Source: an uncultured Alphaproteobacteria bacterium (GTDB lineage: Bacteria > Pseudomonadota > Alphaproteobacteria > Rs-D84). Taken from it: 64,000 bases of DNA. The stretch is from assembly GCA_947053455.1 (NCBI GenBank), contig CAMRSV010000001.1:36937-100936 (forward strand), in the 5' to 3' direction. Shown one piece after another: positions 5,593-51,773 of the stretch; position 1 is the stretch's first letter; the number at the start of each line of letters is the position of its first letter. The notes beneath the pieces were generated by a model. That model was not told the origin of the DNA. It searched no databases and saw only the letters and a program-made list of their open reading frames with translations. The translations under genes were made by a program, and so were the position numbers.

Positions 5593-5626
5593 AAAAAACA
5601 AACCCGCCAAATGGCGGGTTTTTATT
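5593..5626 (+). terminator. rho-independent terminator after dksA
   Basis: Hairpin AACCCGCCAAATGGCGGGTT followed by TTTTT. Confidence 0.8.
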
Positions 5627-5669
5627 AATTTTCCTTTACCATAAATCAAGTTTATGTAAAAATATGCAT

Positions 5670-5915
5670 ATCACAGAGAATTTCTGTGATGGGGCGTCGA
5701 AACCCCTTATAGAGGGTCCGAATAAATTCGGACATTAATGGCACAAGGAAATAATTAATTATTTTCATAGTTGTGCCGCCTTCCAACCACAAAAGGTTGG
5801 AGGATGGCTGAATATATTGAATAGGCCTGCAATTCTCTATAATTGTTTCGAACCTCCAACCACTTGAACTTTTCCAGTGGTTTTTATTTATTAAAAGATT
5901 CAATGGAGTATAGAA
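5670..5915 (+). promoter_or_regulatory. conserved structured 5' leader, copy 1 (candidate riboswitch/attenuator) upstream of cysteine-rich secreted protein gene
   Basis: Perfect IR ATCACAGA-N5-TCTGTGAT (5670-5690). Box GGGGCGTCGAAACCCC (5691-5706). Hairpin CCTTCCAACC-ACAAAA-GGTTGGAGG (5777-5807). Then GAACCTCCAACCACT fused to terminator-like hairpin AACCACT..AGTGGTT+TTTTT (5850-5886), then RBS GGAG and ATG 5916. The same architecture recurs at three other loci. Confidence 0.7.
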
Positions 5916-6518
5916 ATGAGAAAATATCTTATAACTATTTTTGTTTTGTCTTTATCTTTGCCCGCCCGCGGCAACTTGGTAAGTGGCTCATATAAAGAAG
6001 GTGATTGGTGCTATAGTGATTGCACCTATCAAGGATGCCCGTCCGTCCGCAGATTTTCGTGCGGCGGATATTGCAACATGTATGAAATGCCCGATTGGCC
6101 AATCTGCAATAGTTATAACGAAGATGAATCCTGCGTAATTTGGAAAAGCAGCACAGAAATGTATTATTGCAGCCTAGGTGGGGAACATGCCTGCTACGAA
6201 ATTATTGGTTATGGCAGTAGCAAATATGAGACTTATAACACGACAAACCATAGTGTAAAATACTCTGAAATTCAGTTCGAACCAGATGACAACTATTATG
6301 ACAATTGCTCCATAGAAGACATTATCGAAGTTTCTTATGGATGCGCGGCCGGATATTATGTTTCAAGCGGATATGGTTCTAATATTTATTGTTCGACATG
6401 TCCCAACGGCGGTACAAGTTATATCGGAAATATTTCTCAATCTAATTGTTATTTACCCGCGGGAAATTTTAGCGATGCAACCGGCACCGGACAATATACA
6501 TCAAACTGCTACTGGTAA
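5916..6518 (+). CDS. secreted cysteine-rich protein, paralog 1 (EGF/ephrin-receptor-like Cys repeats)
   Basis: 200 aa with a signal peptide and about 20 Cys. The C-terminal ~60 aa (CAAGYY..C..CP.GG..C.LPAGNF..TGTGQY..C) is shared with the 37001..37618 protein. Confidence 0.75.
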   Translation: MRKYLITIFVLSLSLPARGNLVSGSYKEGDWCYSDCTYQGCPSVRRFSCGGYCNMYEMPDWPICNSYNEDESCVIWKSSTEMYYCSLGGEHACYEIIGYGSSKYETYNTTNHSVKYSEIQFEPDDNYYDNCSIEDIIEVSYGCAAGYYVSSGYGSNIYCSTCPNGGTSYIGNISQSNCYLPAGNFSDATGTGQYTSNCYW

Positions 6519-37000: not shown

Positions 37001-37618
37001 CTAGTTATATGTGCATTGCGCCGACATATTATAAGTTCCGGTATTATCATTGTACGTTCCGGCCGGCAGTTTACATTGCGTGACAGACGTGCTGCCGGCC
37101 GCGCTGGTACCATACGTCGTCGTGCCCGCAGAATTTAATTCACCGGGACAACGCGTGCACTTAAGCGACGATGTCGTACCAACGCCGTAATAGCCCGCCG
37201 CACATCTATATTCATTCGTCGCCGTCTCATCACCAGTTTTTCCGCATCCGGAAACAACATTATATTTTCTTTCGCGACCAGTGCCGGACGGGCGCCATTC
37301 ATTTGTGGTGCGCATTAAGCATCCGCAACCTATAAGGTTCGGGGGGTTATCGCTATCAACAACCGCCGTGGCACCGTTAAACACCTCTCCACACATGGAT
37401 TCACAATCTTCAACATTTCCCGAATATCCATCATCATAATAGCAAAGATTTGACCCATAGTCATAACACTCGTCAACATCATTACATTCGCCGGGTGATA
37501 TGGGCTCACTCACACCACCAAAAGTATAAAGCATATCCACTCCTGGATCATCACTATATAAATAAGCATTTGCCGCAAGCGGAAACACTAGAAACAATGC
37601 GATAACAATGCTTTTCAT
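37001..37618 (-). CDS. secreted cysteine-rich protein, paralog 2
   Basis: Signal peptide present. The C-terminal domain is homologous to the 5916..6518 product (CAAGYYG..C.RCPGE...CKLPAGTYNDNTGTY..C). Confidence 0.75.
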   Translation of the reverse strand: MKSIVIALFLVFPLAANAYLYSDDPGVDMLYTFGGVSEPISPGECNDVDECYDYGSNLCYYDDGYSGNVEDCESMCGEVFNGATAVVDSDNPPNLIGCGCLMRTTNEWRPSGTGRERKYNVVSGCGKTGDETATNEYRCAAGYYGVGTTSSLKCTRCPGELNSAGTTTYGTSAAGSTSVTQCKLPAGTYNDNTGTYNMSAQCTYN

Positions 37619-37795
37619 TTAACCCCTCTTTTTATTACAAAAAAACCACTAAAAATCAGTGGTTGGAGGTTCGAAACAATTATCAGGAATTGTGGGCTTA
37701 TTTAGTTATATCGCCACCCTCCAACCCATGGTTGGGGGAAAGTTTTTTCCTGATAAGGGGTTTCGACACCCCGTCCGCGCAACACCCGCCGACAA
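37619..37795 (-). promoter_or_regulatory. conserved structured 5' leader, copy 2
   Basis: Read in gene orientation: GGGGTGTCGAAACCCC box, hairpin CCCCCAACC-ATG-GGTTGGAGG, then GAACCTCCAACCACT-GATTTTT-AGTGGTTTTTTT terminator-like hairpin, then RBS and ATG. Confidence 0.7.
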
Positions 37796-37864
37796 ATTCA
37801 TTATAAATAAAATAAGAAATAATGTAAAATAAAATATGATTATGCAATCCAAACTTGACGCTAT

Positions 37865-40314: not shown

Positions 40315-40375
40315 AAACACGCGCCGCACAAAAACAGATTGCGACGTGAAATATTTTCTCATATAATAAAAAATG

Positions 40376-40567
40376 ATATGGGGTGTTCCCATATCGGGGT
40401 GTCAGAGCCTATGTCACGGCGTCCTTTGTTGGACGATAAATCTCCTGCCGGTCGGCAGGAGGGTTGATGTTATATATTGAAGACATCACACAATTTCCGT
40501 GAAATTGCTCTGAACCTCCTGCCACTCTAATAGAGTGGTTTTATTTTGATACGAGGGGTGAGTAAAA
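40376..40567 (+). promoter_or_regulatory. conserved structured 5' leader, copy 4 (compensatory-variant copy)
   Basis: GGGGTGTCAGAGCC box. The hairpin is CTCCTGCC-GGTC-GGCAGGAG instead of CCAACC/GGTTGG. The downstream segment GAACCTCCTGCCACT-CTAATAG-AGTGGTTTT carries the matching change. Confidence 0.7.
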
Positions 40568-41767
40568 ATGAAATTCAAAAAAATATCATATGCACTTGTT
40601 GCAATTATATGTACCATTGACGCATATGGCAAGGATATGCCTTCAAATATAAAAGAAGCATGGGGCAGCCCTACACTAATTTCTGAATCTTGGAGTCGCG
40701 GCAAAGGCCACGACAGCAGCACAAACATGCCAGACCAGACATTCTGGATGAGTAAAAAGGTTCGCGCCGATAACGCAAACGACGAAGCGATTGTAATTGT
40801 ATACATGGCGCGCCAAGTTGTAGAACACGGTGGATACTTTTGCGCGACGCAACTGCGTTCACGAAACAGCGGAAAATCCGGATGCCCGAACATTTGGACC
40901 CAATATCAAAATCCAACCGGCGATTTTGAACGCACATGCTTTTGGTTATGCGAACCGGGATACACCGGCGAAAATTGTGTCAGTGGTAAGGCAAAATCCG
41001 CAGACGCATGCAAATACACAAATTTATCCGCGGCCACACTATTAAAAGATATAGGGTTTCAACAAATGGGTGGCTATGACACCGCAACGGTGGAAAGCGC
41101 CATACATGATGCCGGCGCACGATTTTTTTATAGCAATACAACTCGCAAATCCGACGAATCTGATGTCATCCTTTTGGCAAAAGAATATCTTGAAAACGGC
41201 CACGGAATTGTTGCATCACCCGCAACATTTTCCGCGCACGGTGGCATGTGGAATGCAGAGAATTATTCCGATGAATGGCTGGATTGCAAATATGGCGATT
41301 CTAATTTAACCGTGACCGCTAATGGCGGCGGGTACACAACAAAAAAACTGTGCATGCCGGGATTTGACGGCGAAGATTGCACAACGACATATTGCAAAAC
41401 ATGCGACGATACGCTTGCCAAATACAATGATAAAACAGGTTCCTGCAGTGACTGTATTGAAAACCATATCCGCAACAAAGAAGGCAAATGCGAAAAGTGC
41501 CCGGCCGGAACAACTGCGGTACAGGATAAAAAAATCTGCCTAGAGTGCAAGAAAACCGAATATGTAAAGGATGGCGAATGTGTGCCACGTGATGTAATTG
41601 AAAAAAGCGTGCTTTATAACTGCTATCCGAATGAAAACGCAAATGATTTCAAGGCATGTGTATCAAGTACATGTACAAATGACGCAAAGGTAAAATGTGT
41701 AACCGCGCAAAAACAAATTGGCACCAAAAAATGCACCGGCGGTAAATGGGGTACATGCACAAAATAA
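40568..41767 (+). CDS. secreted cysteine-rich protein with EGF-like repeats (399 aa)
   Basis: Signal peptide present. Canonical EGF-like motifs CFWLCEPGYTGENC and CMPGFDGEDC, followed by a long C-x2-C-rich tail. Confidence 0.7.
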   Translation: MKFKKISYALVAIICTIDAYGKDMPSNIKEAWGSPTLISESWSRGKGHDSSTNMPDQTFWMSKKVRADNANDEAIVIVYMARQVVEHGGYFCATQLRSRNSGKSGCPNIWTQYQNPTGDFERTCFWLCEPGYTGENCVSGKAKSADACKYTNLSAATLLKDIGFQQMGGYDTATVESAIHDAGARFFYSNTTRKSDESDVILLAKEYLENGHGIVASPATFSAHGGMWNAENYSDEWLDCKYGDSNLTVTANGGGYTTKKLCMPGFDGEDCTTTYCKTCDDTLAKYNDKTGSCSDCIENHIRNKEGKCEKCPAGTTAVQDKKICLECKKTEYVKDGECVPRDVIEKSVLYNCYPNENANDFKACVSSTCTNDAKVKCVTAQKQIGTKKCTGGKWGTCTK

Positions 41768-50608: not shown

Positions 50609-50633
50609 AAAACGGGGCATTGCCCCGTTTTTA
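50609..50633. terminator. bidirectional terminator
   Basis: AAAACGGGGCATTGCCCCGTTTTT. Confidence 0.8.
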
Positions 50634-51527
50634 CTTTAATTCAAACAAATGCATTATTATATCACCACCTTCATATGTTGCCTCGTCTGCCAAGCCGGTA
50701 ACATTGGTGTTATTAGTATTTGTATTCCATTGACCCACGGGGGCATATGATGTCGTCGCGGACACATATTTTTCATGTGCTGTGTCGATAAAAAATTGAA
50801 CAATATTATTCCCCAAAATCCCAGCATAACCCACCGGTTGATCAAACACTGCCATATACGCATATGACACGGATGCGGATCGCCCATCCAATGCATCAAT
50901 TAGATTTGGTTTGTCTGAAATCCCAGGCCCCTTGTAACGTGCAACAAACAGGTATGTTCCCGGTCCTATGGTTCCACCCATACACATTTCATCAACCGAA
51001 AAATCATCTATGTTTGAACTGTTTATATTCTGATTTATTTTCGCACAGGATTTTACCCGACGCCATACGCTTATGTCTGATTTCGGAATAAATTTTTCAA
51101 CCGCGGACAATGTCATAAATTTATTTACATTGCCAAGCCCATCTGGCTGTGCATTGGCATTGCGACTAAAATTAACTTCCGGACAACCTATTGCGCCATA
51201 TGTGCATACCGCGCGATGAAGCCCACCCGTACAGTAATGACCCATGCCGCAATTGACACATTCACTGTTATTCATCAAGTACTGGCCAGGCTCGCACCAC
51301 TTGCCCACCCAATAATCTTTCGCCCCCACCCGCAGGCGCAGCGCCCCGGTCGGCGCAGCGGATGAATACATTGCACCATACCATTTCTCGTCTGCAATAG
51401 AAACCGCCAACGCAGGCGAAGTATTTCGCGTGGAATTAAGTGGCACTGACCGGTCGCCAAAATGCAACATGCGCGCATAACATGCGGCATTAAAAAATAA
51501 TGTAAAAAATAAAACTATATATCTCAT
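50631..51527 (-). CDS. secreted cysteine-rich protein, paralog 3 (298 aa)
   Basis: Signal peptide present. The N-terminal half carries C..G.Y....C..C..G.YC.GG repeats related to the other paralogs, and the C-terminal half is Cys-poor. Confidence 0.65.
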   Translation of the reverse strand: MRYIVLFFTLFFNAACYARMLHFGDRSVPLNSTRNTSPALAVSIADEKWYGAMYSSAAPTGALRLRVGAKDYWVGKWCEPGQYLMNNSECVNCGMGHYCTGGLHRAVCTYGAIGCPEVNFSRNANAQPDGLGNVNKFMTLSAVEKFIPKSDISVWRRVKSCAKINQNINSSNIDDFSVDEMCMGGTIGPGTYLFVARYKGPGISDKPNLIDALDGRSASVSYAYMAVFDQPVGYAGILGNNIVQFFIDTAHEKYVSATTSYAPVGQWNTNTNNTNVTGLADEATYEGGDIIMHLFELK

Positions 51528-51713
51528 CTACCGTTACGACGTAATAAATGCCGTCATATAAATCAGACGGCTGGAGGTTAGAAACTATAAAACGGTATAG
51601 TGTCGTTTATTCAGTATATTCACGAGCCCTCCAACCGAATGTTGGAGTTTTTTTCGTCCACACGGACGCCGTTTTAAAGGTTTCTACACCCCACAGCATT
51701 TATCTTATGCTGC
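51528..51713 (-). promoter_or_regulatory. conserved structured 5' leader, copy 3 (diverged)
   Basis: Gene orientation: hairpin CAGCAT..ATGCTG, box GGGGTGTAGAAACC, hairpin CTCCAAC-ATTC-GGTTGGAGG, then CTAACCTCCAGCC fused to hairpin GCCGTCTGATTTATATGACGGC with an A/T tail, then ATG. Confidence 0.6.
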
Positions 51714-51773
51714 GAAGGAATTATAACATAAAATATTCTTTATATGCCACAGATAATTTCTTATAATAATCAC

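Follow-up and report, generated by a model that had tools for sequence, protein, structure and literature searches.

The window analysed here is a whole stretch of 64,000 nucleotides (nt; 64 kb) of contig CAMRSV010000001.1 (assembly GCA_947053455.1, positions 36,937 to 100,936 of the forward strand) from an uncultured alphaproteobacterium of the order Rs-D84. Most of it was dense, ordinary housekeeping DNA with genes for ThrRS, SecDF, RecA, FtsK, RuvC, TypA, Suf proteins and glycosyltransferases. Four further genes, starting at 5916 (+), 37618 (-), 40568 (+) and 51527 (-), encoded proteins of a secreted class rich in Cys, and their Pfam matches were marginal or absent. Each was preceded by one copy of a structured leader RNA, numbered here as copies 1 to 4 by position, at the place and in the orientation given by the original prediction. 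All four elements shared the strand of the gene that followed. The genes upstream of copies 1 and 2 ended in their own terminators, that before copy 1 at 5600-5630, so that the leaders are separate transcription units. A covariance-model scan of the whole window with filters off detected exactly four copies on the sense strand, with scores from 46.7 bits (67.9 bits in a second search) to 118 bits. The conserved box GGGGYGTMRARRCC was matched four times in 64 kb with at most one mismatch, every time at a leader. The expected number was 0.31, and a count of four was reached in no shuffle. The motif AACCTCCWRCC and its near-matches occurred 11 times versus 1.63 expected, and eight of these lay within leaders: as segment C in four copies, as the reverse complement of strand B3 in three and as strand B5 in one. 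Each of the four copies was far more stable than its dinucleotide shuffles (z = -4.3 to -8.7). None of the 4227 families of Rfam 15 reached its gathering threshold in the 64-kb window, and no tRNA, rRNA or other known RNA was detected. The element is a real, previously uncurated structured leader RNA with a two-state architecture.

From 5' to 3', the element comprised a -10 box, hairpin P0, the box, the 5' strand of helix P2, hairpin P3, an A-rich link, hairpin B, hairpin P5, the purine R94, hairpin P6, the strand GUUNNNA, an A, segment C, the terminator, the ribosome-binding site and the start codon. The box consensus was GGGG-YG-UNNNAAC, followed by CCN. Hairpin B consisted of B5 (CUCCAACC), a loop and B3 (GGUUGGAGG). 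P5 had a covarying stem and a nearly invariant loop (GAAUAUAUUGAAUAA). P6 was formed by CUAU...AUAG or CAAU...AUUG and held the 3' strand of P2 in its loop. P3 was missing in a subclass of short leaders. The short 5' hairpin predicted for every copy was recovered as P0 in the minimum free energy (MFE) folds of all four, with differing sequence. Hairpin B, the repeat of its 5' arm in C and the hairpin plus T-tract starting inside C were likewise present in every window copy. The U-tract was clear in copies 1-3 and weak in copy 4 (AUUUAUU), although the stem of the latter was good. Two variants were real but had been placed wrongly. The triple change CTCCTGCC / GGCAGGAG / CCTCCTGCC sits in the copy ahead of 40568+, the labels of copies 3 and 4 having been swapped, and the terminator GCCGTC..GACGGC belongs to the copy ahead of 51527- and not to the one labelled copy 3. 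The supposed AT-rich spacer proved to be two hairpins, P5 with its conserved 14-nt loop and P6. The predicted switching logic held, but the anatomy given with it had been incomplete. The conserved box is one strand of a long-range helix, in which GGGGYGUNNNAAC pairs with GUUNNNA just 5' of C. Two more features had to be added, a second, variable long-range helix (P2) and a pseudoknotted multi-helix domain that is closed by the anti-terminator helix.

The copy 1 protein gave no relatives to follow, and the family was sought by a degenerate DNA pattern instead. This pattern comprised B3, an ATATA block and C, and at least 119 stretches of the genome collection matched it. A covariance model trained on 91 of the listed stretches gave 115 matches at E < 1e-3 in ~0.8 Mb of sequence, namely the four of the window and 111 further ones, some of which had been missed by the pattern. 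The search of related genomes proposed with the original prediction thus yielded a family, and covariation was present in it. Nearly all listed pattern matches originated from gut or rumen alphaproteobacterial metagenome-assembled genomes (MAGs) named Candidatus Enterousia, 'Rickettsiales bacterium' or 'uncultured Alphaproteobacteria'. Two pattern matches outside the clade were checked (L028 and L100), and neither was a model match. Candidatus Enterousia belongs to the uncultured order Rs-D84 and has genomes of ~0.75-1.0 Mb with few recognisable regulators or transporters (PMC12306168). Several family loci were syntenic with the window at 69-78% nucleotide identity. Leaders at syntenic positions in relatives of ~70% identity suggest a resident regulatory element rather than a mobile one. 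In 103 of 110 copies, 24-28 nt (mode 27) separated the end of a TATAAT-type -10 box from the conserved box, and TTGCAA at -35 was common among the family promoters. The start codon followed on the same strand, mostly 44-57 nt past C. With the -10 box upstream of the leader, hairpin B lies within the transcript; this and the covariation of five helices bear out the earlier view of an RNA element rather than a DNA site. The sequences are kin by descent, and shuffle controls therefore overstate significance, whereas slid-partner controls and multiple pair types are stronger. High-scoring leaders were also present in L013 (labelled Bacteroides fragilis, 110 bits) and L030 (labelled Muribaculaceae, 82 bits). 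L013 aligned with two window regions of 2.2 kb and 0.8 kb at 68-73% identity. Both contigs are most likely mis-binned in their MAGs.

The pairings of the family were resolved into two folds. Fold A was the nested MFE structure in all four window copies and in all 103 family members tested. In its helix P1, the box had an exact 7-nt complement in 116 of 126 unselected pattern matches, with dozens of different 7-mers. On the model-based alignment, this helix (S2) was 99.5% paired and six of its seven pairs covaried, and hairpin B was 96.4% paired. The GGGG of the box can extend the helix onto the CUCC of C. The sequence of P2 was different in almost every copy, and family-wide its cognate duplexes had a mean of -11.2 kcal/mol vs -5.8 kcal/mol for non-cognate ones (p = 5e-47).

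The helices of fold B were absent from the model that made the alignment, so that their pairing counts are not fitted. B3:C (GGUUGGAGG with CCUCCAACC) was 99.7% paired, with compensatory changes at four positions. The 3' arm of B thus had the two alternative partners predicted for it, its own 5' arm (96.4% of cells) and C (99.7%). B5, B3 and C changed in concert, also as predicted, by UUGG/CCAA, CAGG/CCUG and CUGG/CCAG, and by GGAGA/UCUCC in L102. The overlap of C with the terminator stem was equally general, a hairpin plus U-tract starting from the AACC of C in 103 of 110 copies. P6 was 95.5% paired (UA 84, AU 26), and P1a, formed by GGGG with the following CCCN, was 87.8% paired with compensatory changes. 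GGGG:CUCC was rejected as the sole pairing of the box, since column 1 varied while C was invariant (21 of 91 unpaired) and the P1a partner compensated instead. Both pairings probably occur, in different folds. A mutual-information scan returned a lone long-range pair, Y5:R94, which links the Y of the box to the purine between P5 and P6 (UA 59, CG 45, AU 5). It was of Watson-Crick type in 95.7%, whereas shuffles gave 66% and no slid partner exceeded 75%, and the pair was intact in all four window copies. Fold B comprised a pseudoknot in which no base is used twice: P1a pairs positions 1-4 with 13-16, and the loop (7-12) pairs with the junction strand (111-116). P6 stacks on this loop-junction helix with Y5:R94 at the meeting point, and P5 and B3:C complete a tight junction. 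Hairpin B and the terminator are certainly incompatible with fold B, and P2 and the extension by GGGG:CUCC probably are as well.

B5 showed G.U pairs and mismatches while B3:C stayed perfect, as expected if B5 must be displaceable. At the moment when C has just been made, nested fold B was ~+10 kcal/mol above fold A. The pseudoknot helix contributes ~-10.3 kcal/mol of stacking beyond the nested calculation, a rough estimate that ignores loop penalties. These values suggest that the two folds are roughly balanced.

Table 1. Coordinates of the four leaders, their parts and the genes that follow (positions in the window; ORF, open reading frame; SD, Shine-Dalgarno sequence; aa, amino acids).
Feature	Position	Strand	Basis or remark
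Copy 1 -10-like TAAAAAT, own promoter	5657..5663	+	fits family rule: -10 ends 24-28 nt before box
Copy 1 P0 5' hairpin (AUCACAGA/UCUGUGAU)	5670..5690	+	MFE fold; different sequence in other copies
Copy 1 box GGGGCGUCGAAAC + CCC	5691..5706	+	holds P1a (GGGG/CCCC) and Y5 = C5695; UCGAAAC is 5' strand of S2/P1
Copy 1 P2 5' strand (UUAUAGAGG), partner 5834-5842	5707..5715	+	MFE fold; family cognate-duplex test
Copy 1 P3 hairpin	5716..5733	+	MFE fold; P3 pairs covary, columns 33:67, 36:56, 37:54
Copy 1 extra hairpin, insertion at this locus and orthologue L020	5740..5778	+	MFE fold; spacing
Copy 1 B5 (CUUCCAACC), 5' arm of hairpin B; putative anti-anti-terminator	5780..5788	+	fold, covariation
Copy 1 B3 (GGUUGGAGG), switching strand, partner B5 or C	5795..5803	+	pattern count, covariation
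Copy 1 P5 hairpin, conserved loop GAAUAUAUUGAAUA	5806..5827	+	stem covaries GC/UA/CG/AU
Copy 1 R94 (G), partner Y5 (C5695)	5829..5829	+	UA 59, CG 45, AU 5 in family
Copy 1 P6 hairpin (CAAUU/AAUUG), loop = P2 3' strand	5830..5845	+	UA-to-AU compensatory changes
Copy 1 S2/P1 3' strand (GUUUCGA)	5845..5851	+	exact complement, covariation
Copy 1 segment C (CCUCCAACC), anti-terminator partner of B3	5853..5861	+	pattern count, covariation; CUCC can pair instead with box GGGG, AACC opens terminator
Copy 1 intrinsic terminator (AACCACU...AGUGGUU + U-tract)	5858..5885	+	fold
Copy 1 gene, 200 aa, Cys-rich, signal-peptide-like N-terminus	5916..6518	+	ORF; SD GGAG 5905-5908
Copy 2 whole unit, -10 TATAAT (37800-37805) to base before ATG	37619..37805	-	92 bits
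Copy 2 box GGGGUGUCGAAAC	37760..37772	-	box scan
Copy 2 B5 (CCCCCAACC)	37730..37738	-	sequence, fold
Copy 2 B3 (GGUUGGAGG)	37718..37726	-	sequence, pattern count
Copy 2 segment C (CCUCCAACC)	37661..37669	-	pattern count
Copy 2 terminator (AACCACU GAUUUUU AGUGGUU + U-tract)	37641..37664	-	sequence, fold
Copy 2 gene, 205 aa, Cys-rich, signal-peptide-like N-terminus	37001..37618	-	ORF
Copy 3 whole unit, -10 TATAAT (40362-40367) to base before ATG	40362..40567	+	84.7 bits
Copy 3 box GGGGUGUCAGAGC, compensated by GCUCUGA 40507-40513	40396..40408	+	box scan, fold
Copy 3 B5 variant (CUCCUGCC)	40442..40449	+	sequence, pattern count
Copy 3 B3 variant (GGCAGGAGG)	40454..40462	+	sequence, pattern count
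Copy 3 segment C variant (CCUCCUGCC)	40515..40523	+	pattern count
Copy 3 terminator (CCACUCU AAU AGAGUGG + U-tract)	40522..40542	+	sequence, fold
Copy 3 gene, 399 aa, signal-peptide-like N-terminus, Cys-rich C-terminus	40568..41767	+	weak TNFR/ELAPOR-like match
Copy 4 whole unit, -10 TATAAT (51720-51725) to base before ATG	51528..51725	-	117.9 bits
Copy 4 box GGGGUGUAGAAAC, compensated by GUUUCUA 51579-51585	51680..51692	-	box scan, fold
Copy 4 B5 (CUCCAAC)	51641..51647	-	sequence, fold
Copy 4 B3 (GGUUGGAGG)	51628..51636	-	sequence
Copy 4 segment C (CCUCCAGCC; G.U with B3)	51569..51577	-	pattern count
Copy 4 terminator (GCCGUC...GACGGC)	51543..51571	-	sequence, fold
Copy 4 gene, 298 aa, signal-peptide-like N-terminus	50631..51527	-	ORF

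Further variation was observed within and around the leaders. An extra hairpin of 40-80 nt was present between P3 and B5 in copy 1 and in L020, and also in L084 and L098. In these four leaders the spacing from box to B3 was 102-142 nt, compared with the usual ~60 nt. In L020, the leader follows a region in synteny with the part of the window directly before copy 1. The tolerance of large insertions in the link between P3 and B5 is consistent with a single-stranded or peripheral position of this link in the functional fold. Segment C was followed by ACC, GCC, ACU or GCU in 92 of 103 copies, a purine and then C, resembling the acceptor end of a tRNA. The precursor of the C4 RNA of phage P1 is reportedly a substrate of RNase P, and by analogy processing at the 5' side of B3 is conceivable. 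The U-tract was often followed by a short loop and a pairing A-tract, for example UUUUUUCAUUCGCAAUGAAAAAA, which ended 3-8 nt before the Shine-Dalgarno sequence; instances are window positions 5881-5899, L012, L089 and L094. This pairing was part of the strict MFE fold in 31 of 83 copies, and the hairpin may shape the initiation region of the read-through mRNA. In L102 (2362-2998, - strand), three tandem leaders lay ~220-280 nt apart, each with a -10-like box and a terminator, and an ORF followed the last one only. The middle copy was a triple-compensated variant (B5 UCUCCAGC, B3 GGUUGGAGA, C UCUCCAACC). This tandem layout recalls the sRNA-Xcc1 arrays of Xylella. A leader peptide starting in P5 (GUG AAU AUA UUG...) was considered and rejected, as about half of the copies had GCG for GUG and some had 2-nt indels in the loop.

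The genes downstream of the leaders encoded 83 unique proteins, of which 53 had a signal-peptide-like N-terminus and 25 were small (at most 110 aa) and lacked one. Most of the 99 downstream proteins had no Pfam match. Those with a match were represented by the XRE helix-turn-helix (HTH) domain, the Listeria-Bacteroides repeat (Flg_new), TNFR/ephrin-like Cys-rich modules, two ABC exporters, a trypsin-like protease and an outer-membrane beta-barrel (OMP). About a quarter of the copies preceded XRE HTH genes. The subclass of short leaders without P3 (L003, L007, L018, L024, L026, L029, L031, L033 and others) had a P0 loop of the type GGGUGAUNNCC and preceded small XRE-type HTH proteins of 60-100 aa in 18 of 20 cases. 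A variant with the box CGAGAUUAGAACUCUCG preceded a distinct family of small proteins of 60-65 aa. The copy 1 protein (5916-6518) belonged to no Pfam family, and among 5.8 billion protein clusters only the protein itself or a 99%-identical cluster was found. Conservation of the leader extends across the order, whereas the genes under its control appear to evolve very rapidly.

Taken together, the element is probably a cis-acting transcription attenuator, that is, a bistable mRNA 5' leader of ~170-250 nt under its own sigma-70-type promoter. At the level of sequence, the analysis demonstrated the putative promoter, the overlap of terminator and C, the exclusive choice of partner by B3, selection on both folds and the fixed relation to the start codon. 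In fold A, the predicted OFF state, B5 would hold B3 (GGUUGGAGG) in hairpin B. Pairing of the box with GUUNNNA and of its GGGG with the CUCC of C would form helix P1. P2 would extend P1, and both would close a junction around P3, B and P5. The AACC of C would then be free, the intrinsic terminator would form and transcription would stop ~30 nt before the ribosome-binding site. In fold B, the predicted ON state, the 9-bp helix B3:C would take the first four bases of the terminator stem and close a three-way junction with P5 and P6. The box would form hairpin P1a, with its loop paired to GUUNNNA as an H-type pseudoknot and Y5 paired to R94, and B5 and the 5' strand of P2 would be single-stranded. 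An effector that stabilises fold B would lead to read-through. Candidates are a small molecule or protein that binds the invariant P5 loop or the core with its pseudoknot, and a factor that sequesters B5 and the A-rich strand once these are released. The junction strand that would line a pocket was variable and covaried with the box, and the invariant part was the 14-nt hairpin loop, which slightly favours a macromolecular partner or else a tertiary contact. The shift by an effector, the role of fold B as the read-through state and the nature and target of the effector are what we infer from this architecture.

Several observations weigh against an attenuator of this kind. The OFF fold was favoured by nested thermodynamics in every copy, and the ON fold would need the pseudoknot, kinetics or a factor. 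The exact content of each state is a model, in which strict exclusivity of P2 and P6 may or may not hold. No metabolic pathway was enriched among the 99 downstream proteins; these were not tied to one metabolite or ion and gave no pointer to a ligand. Transcript ends and condition-dependent read-through are deduced from sequence features. Finally, a trans-acting product is possible, considering the gene-less tandem leaders of L102 and the likeness of the 3' domain to a free-standing small RNA (sRNA).

In its most explicit form, the product would be an sRNA related to sRNA-Xcc1 and C4/IsrK, in the form of the terminated leader (~180 nt) or of a B3-to-C domain of ~75-85 nt released by processing. 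It would act in trans or on its own read-through mRNA, and the 5' half would be an in-cis decoy like a1/b1 of phage P1 that masks the pairing surfaces. We regard this as unlikely, although a number of features fit. Each leader has its own promoter and terminator with the terminated fold as default, gene-less tandem copies exist in L102, and RCC or RCU follows the closing helix in 92 of 103 copies as in a tRNA acceptor end. The B3...C domain repeatedly gave full-length matches to sRNA-Xcc1 (RF02221) with the same junction layout, scoring 33.2 bits in window copy 4 and 35.1, 37 and 40 bits in L007, L037 and L083, and P0 and P1a matched c4-a1b1 weakly (9-21 bits). All of these scores were below the Rfam thresholds, which is 53 bits for sRNA-Xcc1. 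The precedent of sRNA-Xcc1 is an 88-nt RNA mapped by rapid amplification of cDNA ends (PMC2996969), which occurs upstream of symE and in tandem arrays beside C4/IsrK. However, the P6 and P5 regions of the leaders were not copy-specifically complementary to their own initiation region (-6.8 cognate vs -6.6 kcal/mol non-cognate, p = 0.25; p = 0.44), and in sequence the 5' strands of P2 were no closer to their own initiation region than to those of other copies. A cis attenuator, but not a free sRNA, needs the close spacing to a start codon on the same strand and the overlap of C and terminator. The sRNA reading and cis attenuation are compatible.

Other explanations were given less weight. A constitutive structured 5' untranslated region without sensing would provide fixed low read-through or mRNA protection or processing, and the alternative pairings would be folding intermediates. 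This agrees with downstream genes without a ligand theme and with the OFF fold as MFE in every copy, and a fixed attenuator might serve a reduced genome (PMC12306168 for its size) that has few regulators. It is nevertheless improbable, because B3:C, P6, P1a and Y5:R94 lie outside the most stable fold and are still kept by compensatory changes, and B5 tolerates G.U pairs and mismatches while B3:C is perfect. Without switching, it is hard to see why selection should maintain a second, competitive fold. A function at the DNA level was judged very improbable. It could be an internal promoter, with a -35 hexamer (TTGAAT) from the P5 loop and a -10 hexamer (TATAGT) at P6, and such hexamers were present in many copies. 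Their spacing ranged over 16-26 nt, with 34% of copies within 16-18 nt (17 +/- 1 bp being the promoter spacing), the CAAU/AUUG variants abolish the -10, and a well-placed promoter already exists upstream. The other option is an operator for an XRE repressor, to which the palindromic AATATATT and the XRE HTH genes after about a quarter of the copies would be suited. The stems around the conserved loop and five other helices covary, which is needless for a DNA site. That the copies are a dispersed repeat, a mobile element or the 5' ends of duplicated genes without a function of their own is scarcely credible. They are multi-copy in one genome and in tandem in L102, but the downstream proteins are mutually unrelated, and the variable helices differ between copies and yet remain complementary. 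Terminal repeats and a transposase were absent, gene orientation and spacing were fixed, and positions were syntenic across species.

As a cis-acting attenuator, the leader probably switches much of the surface and secreted proteins of these bacteria on and off in response to a signal. Rs-D84 is an almost unstudied gut lineage with reduced genomes, in which one RNA shared by so many genes for secreted proteins, surface proteins and regulators would form a main regulatory circuit. The four copies of the 64-kb window extrapolate to tens per genome, which is a guess. The leader offers a direct handle on the stimuli perceived by Rs-D84 bacteria, be it in the gut or on a partner cell, and its covariance model is a simple marker for a regulated secretome in MAGs. 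For RNA biology, it is an orphan switch whose two folds, with a pseudoknot and a lone tertiary pair among their contacts, are both documented by covariation, and it suggests a link to sRNA-Xcc1, which is widely annotated yet poorly understood. A more far-reaching proposal, tentative and on balance doubtful, is that the pseudoknotted fold (P1a, S2, P6, P5, B3:C, Y5:R94) is a new riboswitch aptamer or the dock of a dedicated RNA-binding regulator. One global signal, such as a second messenger or a molecule from the host or a partner, could then switch on most secreted and surface proteins and the XRE set of Rs-D84 via tens of copies per ~0.9-Mb genome. By extension, the widespread sRNA-Xcc1 RNAs known from integrons, prophages and genomic islands would be the same sensor domain, working in cis on the gene that follows and not as trans sRNAs.

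Compared with known systems, the element lay outside the known riboswitch classes, as predicted, with no Rfam match at threshold. The forecast of no significant Rfam match held in this sense, but missed a sub-threshold likeness of the 3' domain to sRNA-Xcc1. Permissive scans of three of the four window copies and eight related loci returned only sub-threshold sRNA-Xcc1, c4-a1b1 and terminator noise, those of copies 1 and 2 terminator look-alikes only. In the searchable literature there was no description of the element, no paper tying Rs-D84 to a riboswitch and no relevant paper with the conserved 9-11-mers. A catalogue of structured RNAs from the human microbiome (PMC8040213) held no match in its main text and first 200 supplementary files, although an entry among its 3161 candidates is possible.

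Transcription-terminating riboswitches and attenuators likewise combine a covarying structured domain and pseudoknot with a strand shared between anti-terminator and terminator, just upstream of an ORF. The leader had such a conserved covarying domain and a mutually exclusive anti-terminator and terminator with shared nucleotides (103 of 110). Unlike in riboswitches, its anti-terminator helix is the closing helix of the conserved domain, with the competing strands 5' and not 3' of it. Several copies per 64 kb precede secreted proteins, instead of a few preceding a pathway. The c-di-GMP-I (GEMM) riboswitch is also multi-copy and located ahead of secreted, surface and regulatory genes. This is a functional analogy only, as the architecture of the leader is unrelated and GEMM was not matched even at permissive Rfam thresholds. 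The immI region of phage P1 is said to comprise upstream sites a1/b1, the C4 antisense RNA and downstream sites a2/b2. Similar to the C4 system (RF01695, RF03163, RF01394), the leader holds an upstream copy (B5, 5' strand of P2, box loop), an antisense part (B3, P6 loop, junction strand) and a downstream copy (C) in one transcript. It differs in that no C4 or IsrK match lay on the element and the downstream copy overlaps a terminator. Its loops showed no specific complementarity to downstream ribosome-binding sites (p = 0.25 and 0.44). The c4-a1b1 scores of 21.2 bits (L083:5564-5617) and 9.4 bits (window 51673-51726, -) were below the threshold of 46.7 bits and may reflect no more than two adjacent hairpins of similar size.

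sRNA-Xcc1 is found in integron cassettes of Xanthomonas and is annotated also in Xylella, APSE phages and E. coli. The leader matches aligned over its full length (positions 1-87) and had its layout of a 9-bp closing helix, two adjacent hairpins and then CACCC-UUUU; three helices of this junction were independently backed by covariation. In both RNAs, a G-rich closing helix of 9 bp (here B3:C) is joined by a 3-nt link to a first hairpin, whose loop is large and A/U-rich (P5). A second hairpin of 5-6 bp (P6) follows immediately, a strand of 6-7 nt returns to the closing helix, and CACC(C)UUUU comes after it. Both are located directly ahead of a gene in the same orientation and form tandem arrays. 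The leaders differ by an extra 5' domain of 70-140 nt (P0, box, P2 strand, P3, B5), which is complementary to three parts of the 3' domain, by a separate terminator that overlaps the closing helix and by a promoter ~100 nt upstream of that helix. With the -10 box at this distance, the 5' end of a short, sRNA-Xcc1-like form would need processing. The 5' end of the RNA mapped in Xanthomonas is at the closing helix (PMC2996969). Other sRNA-Xcc1 copies are reported ahead of symE in integron cassettes (bioRxiv 10.1101/2025.06.18.660453), ahead of an ORF6N gene of APSE phages (bioRxiv 10.1101/2020.03.17.996009) and in tandem arrays adjoining C4 and IsrK in Xylella (PMC12189769). When genuine sRNA-Xcc1 loci were sought, pattern scans of viral contigs gave only chance matches in GC-rich coding DNA, and blastn of the Rfam consensus against plasmids gave nothing. 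sRNA-Xcc1 is the nearest relative of the leader through the shared three-way-junction domain, at scores below those of membership. By sequence and structure the element is most likely a new family, and by function it is of a known kind, the terminator/anti-terminator leaders.

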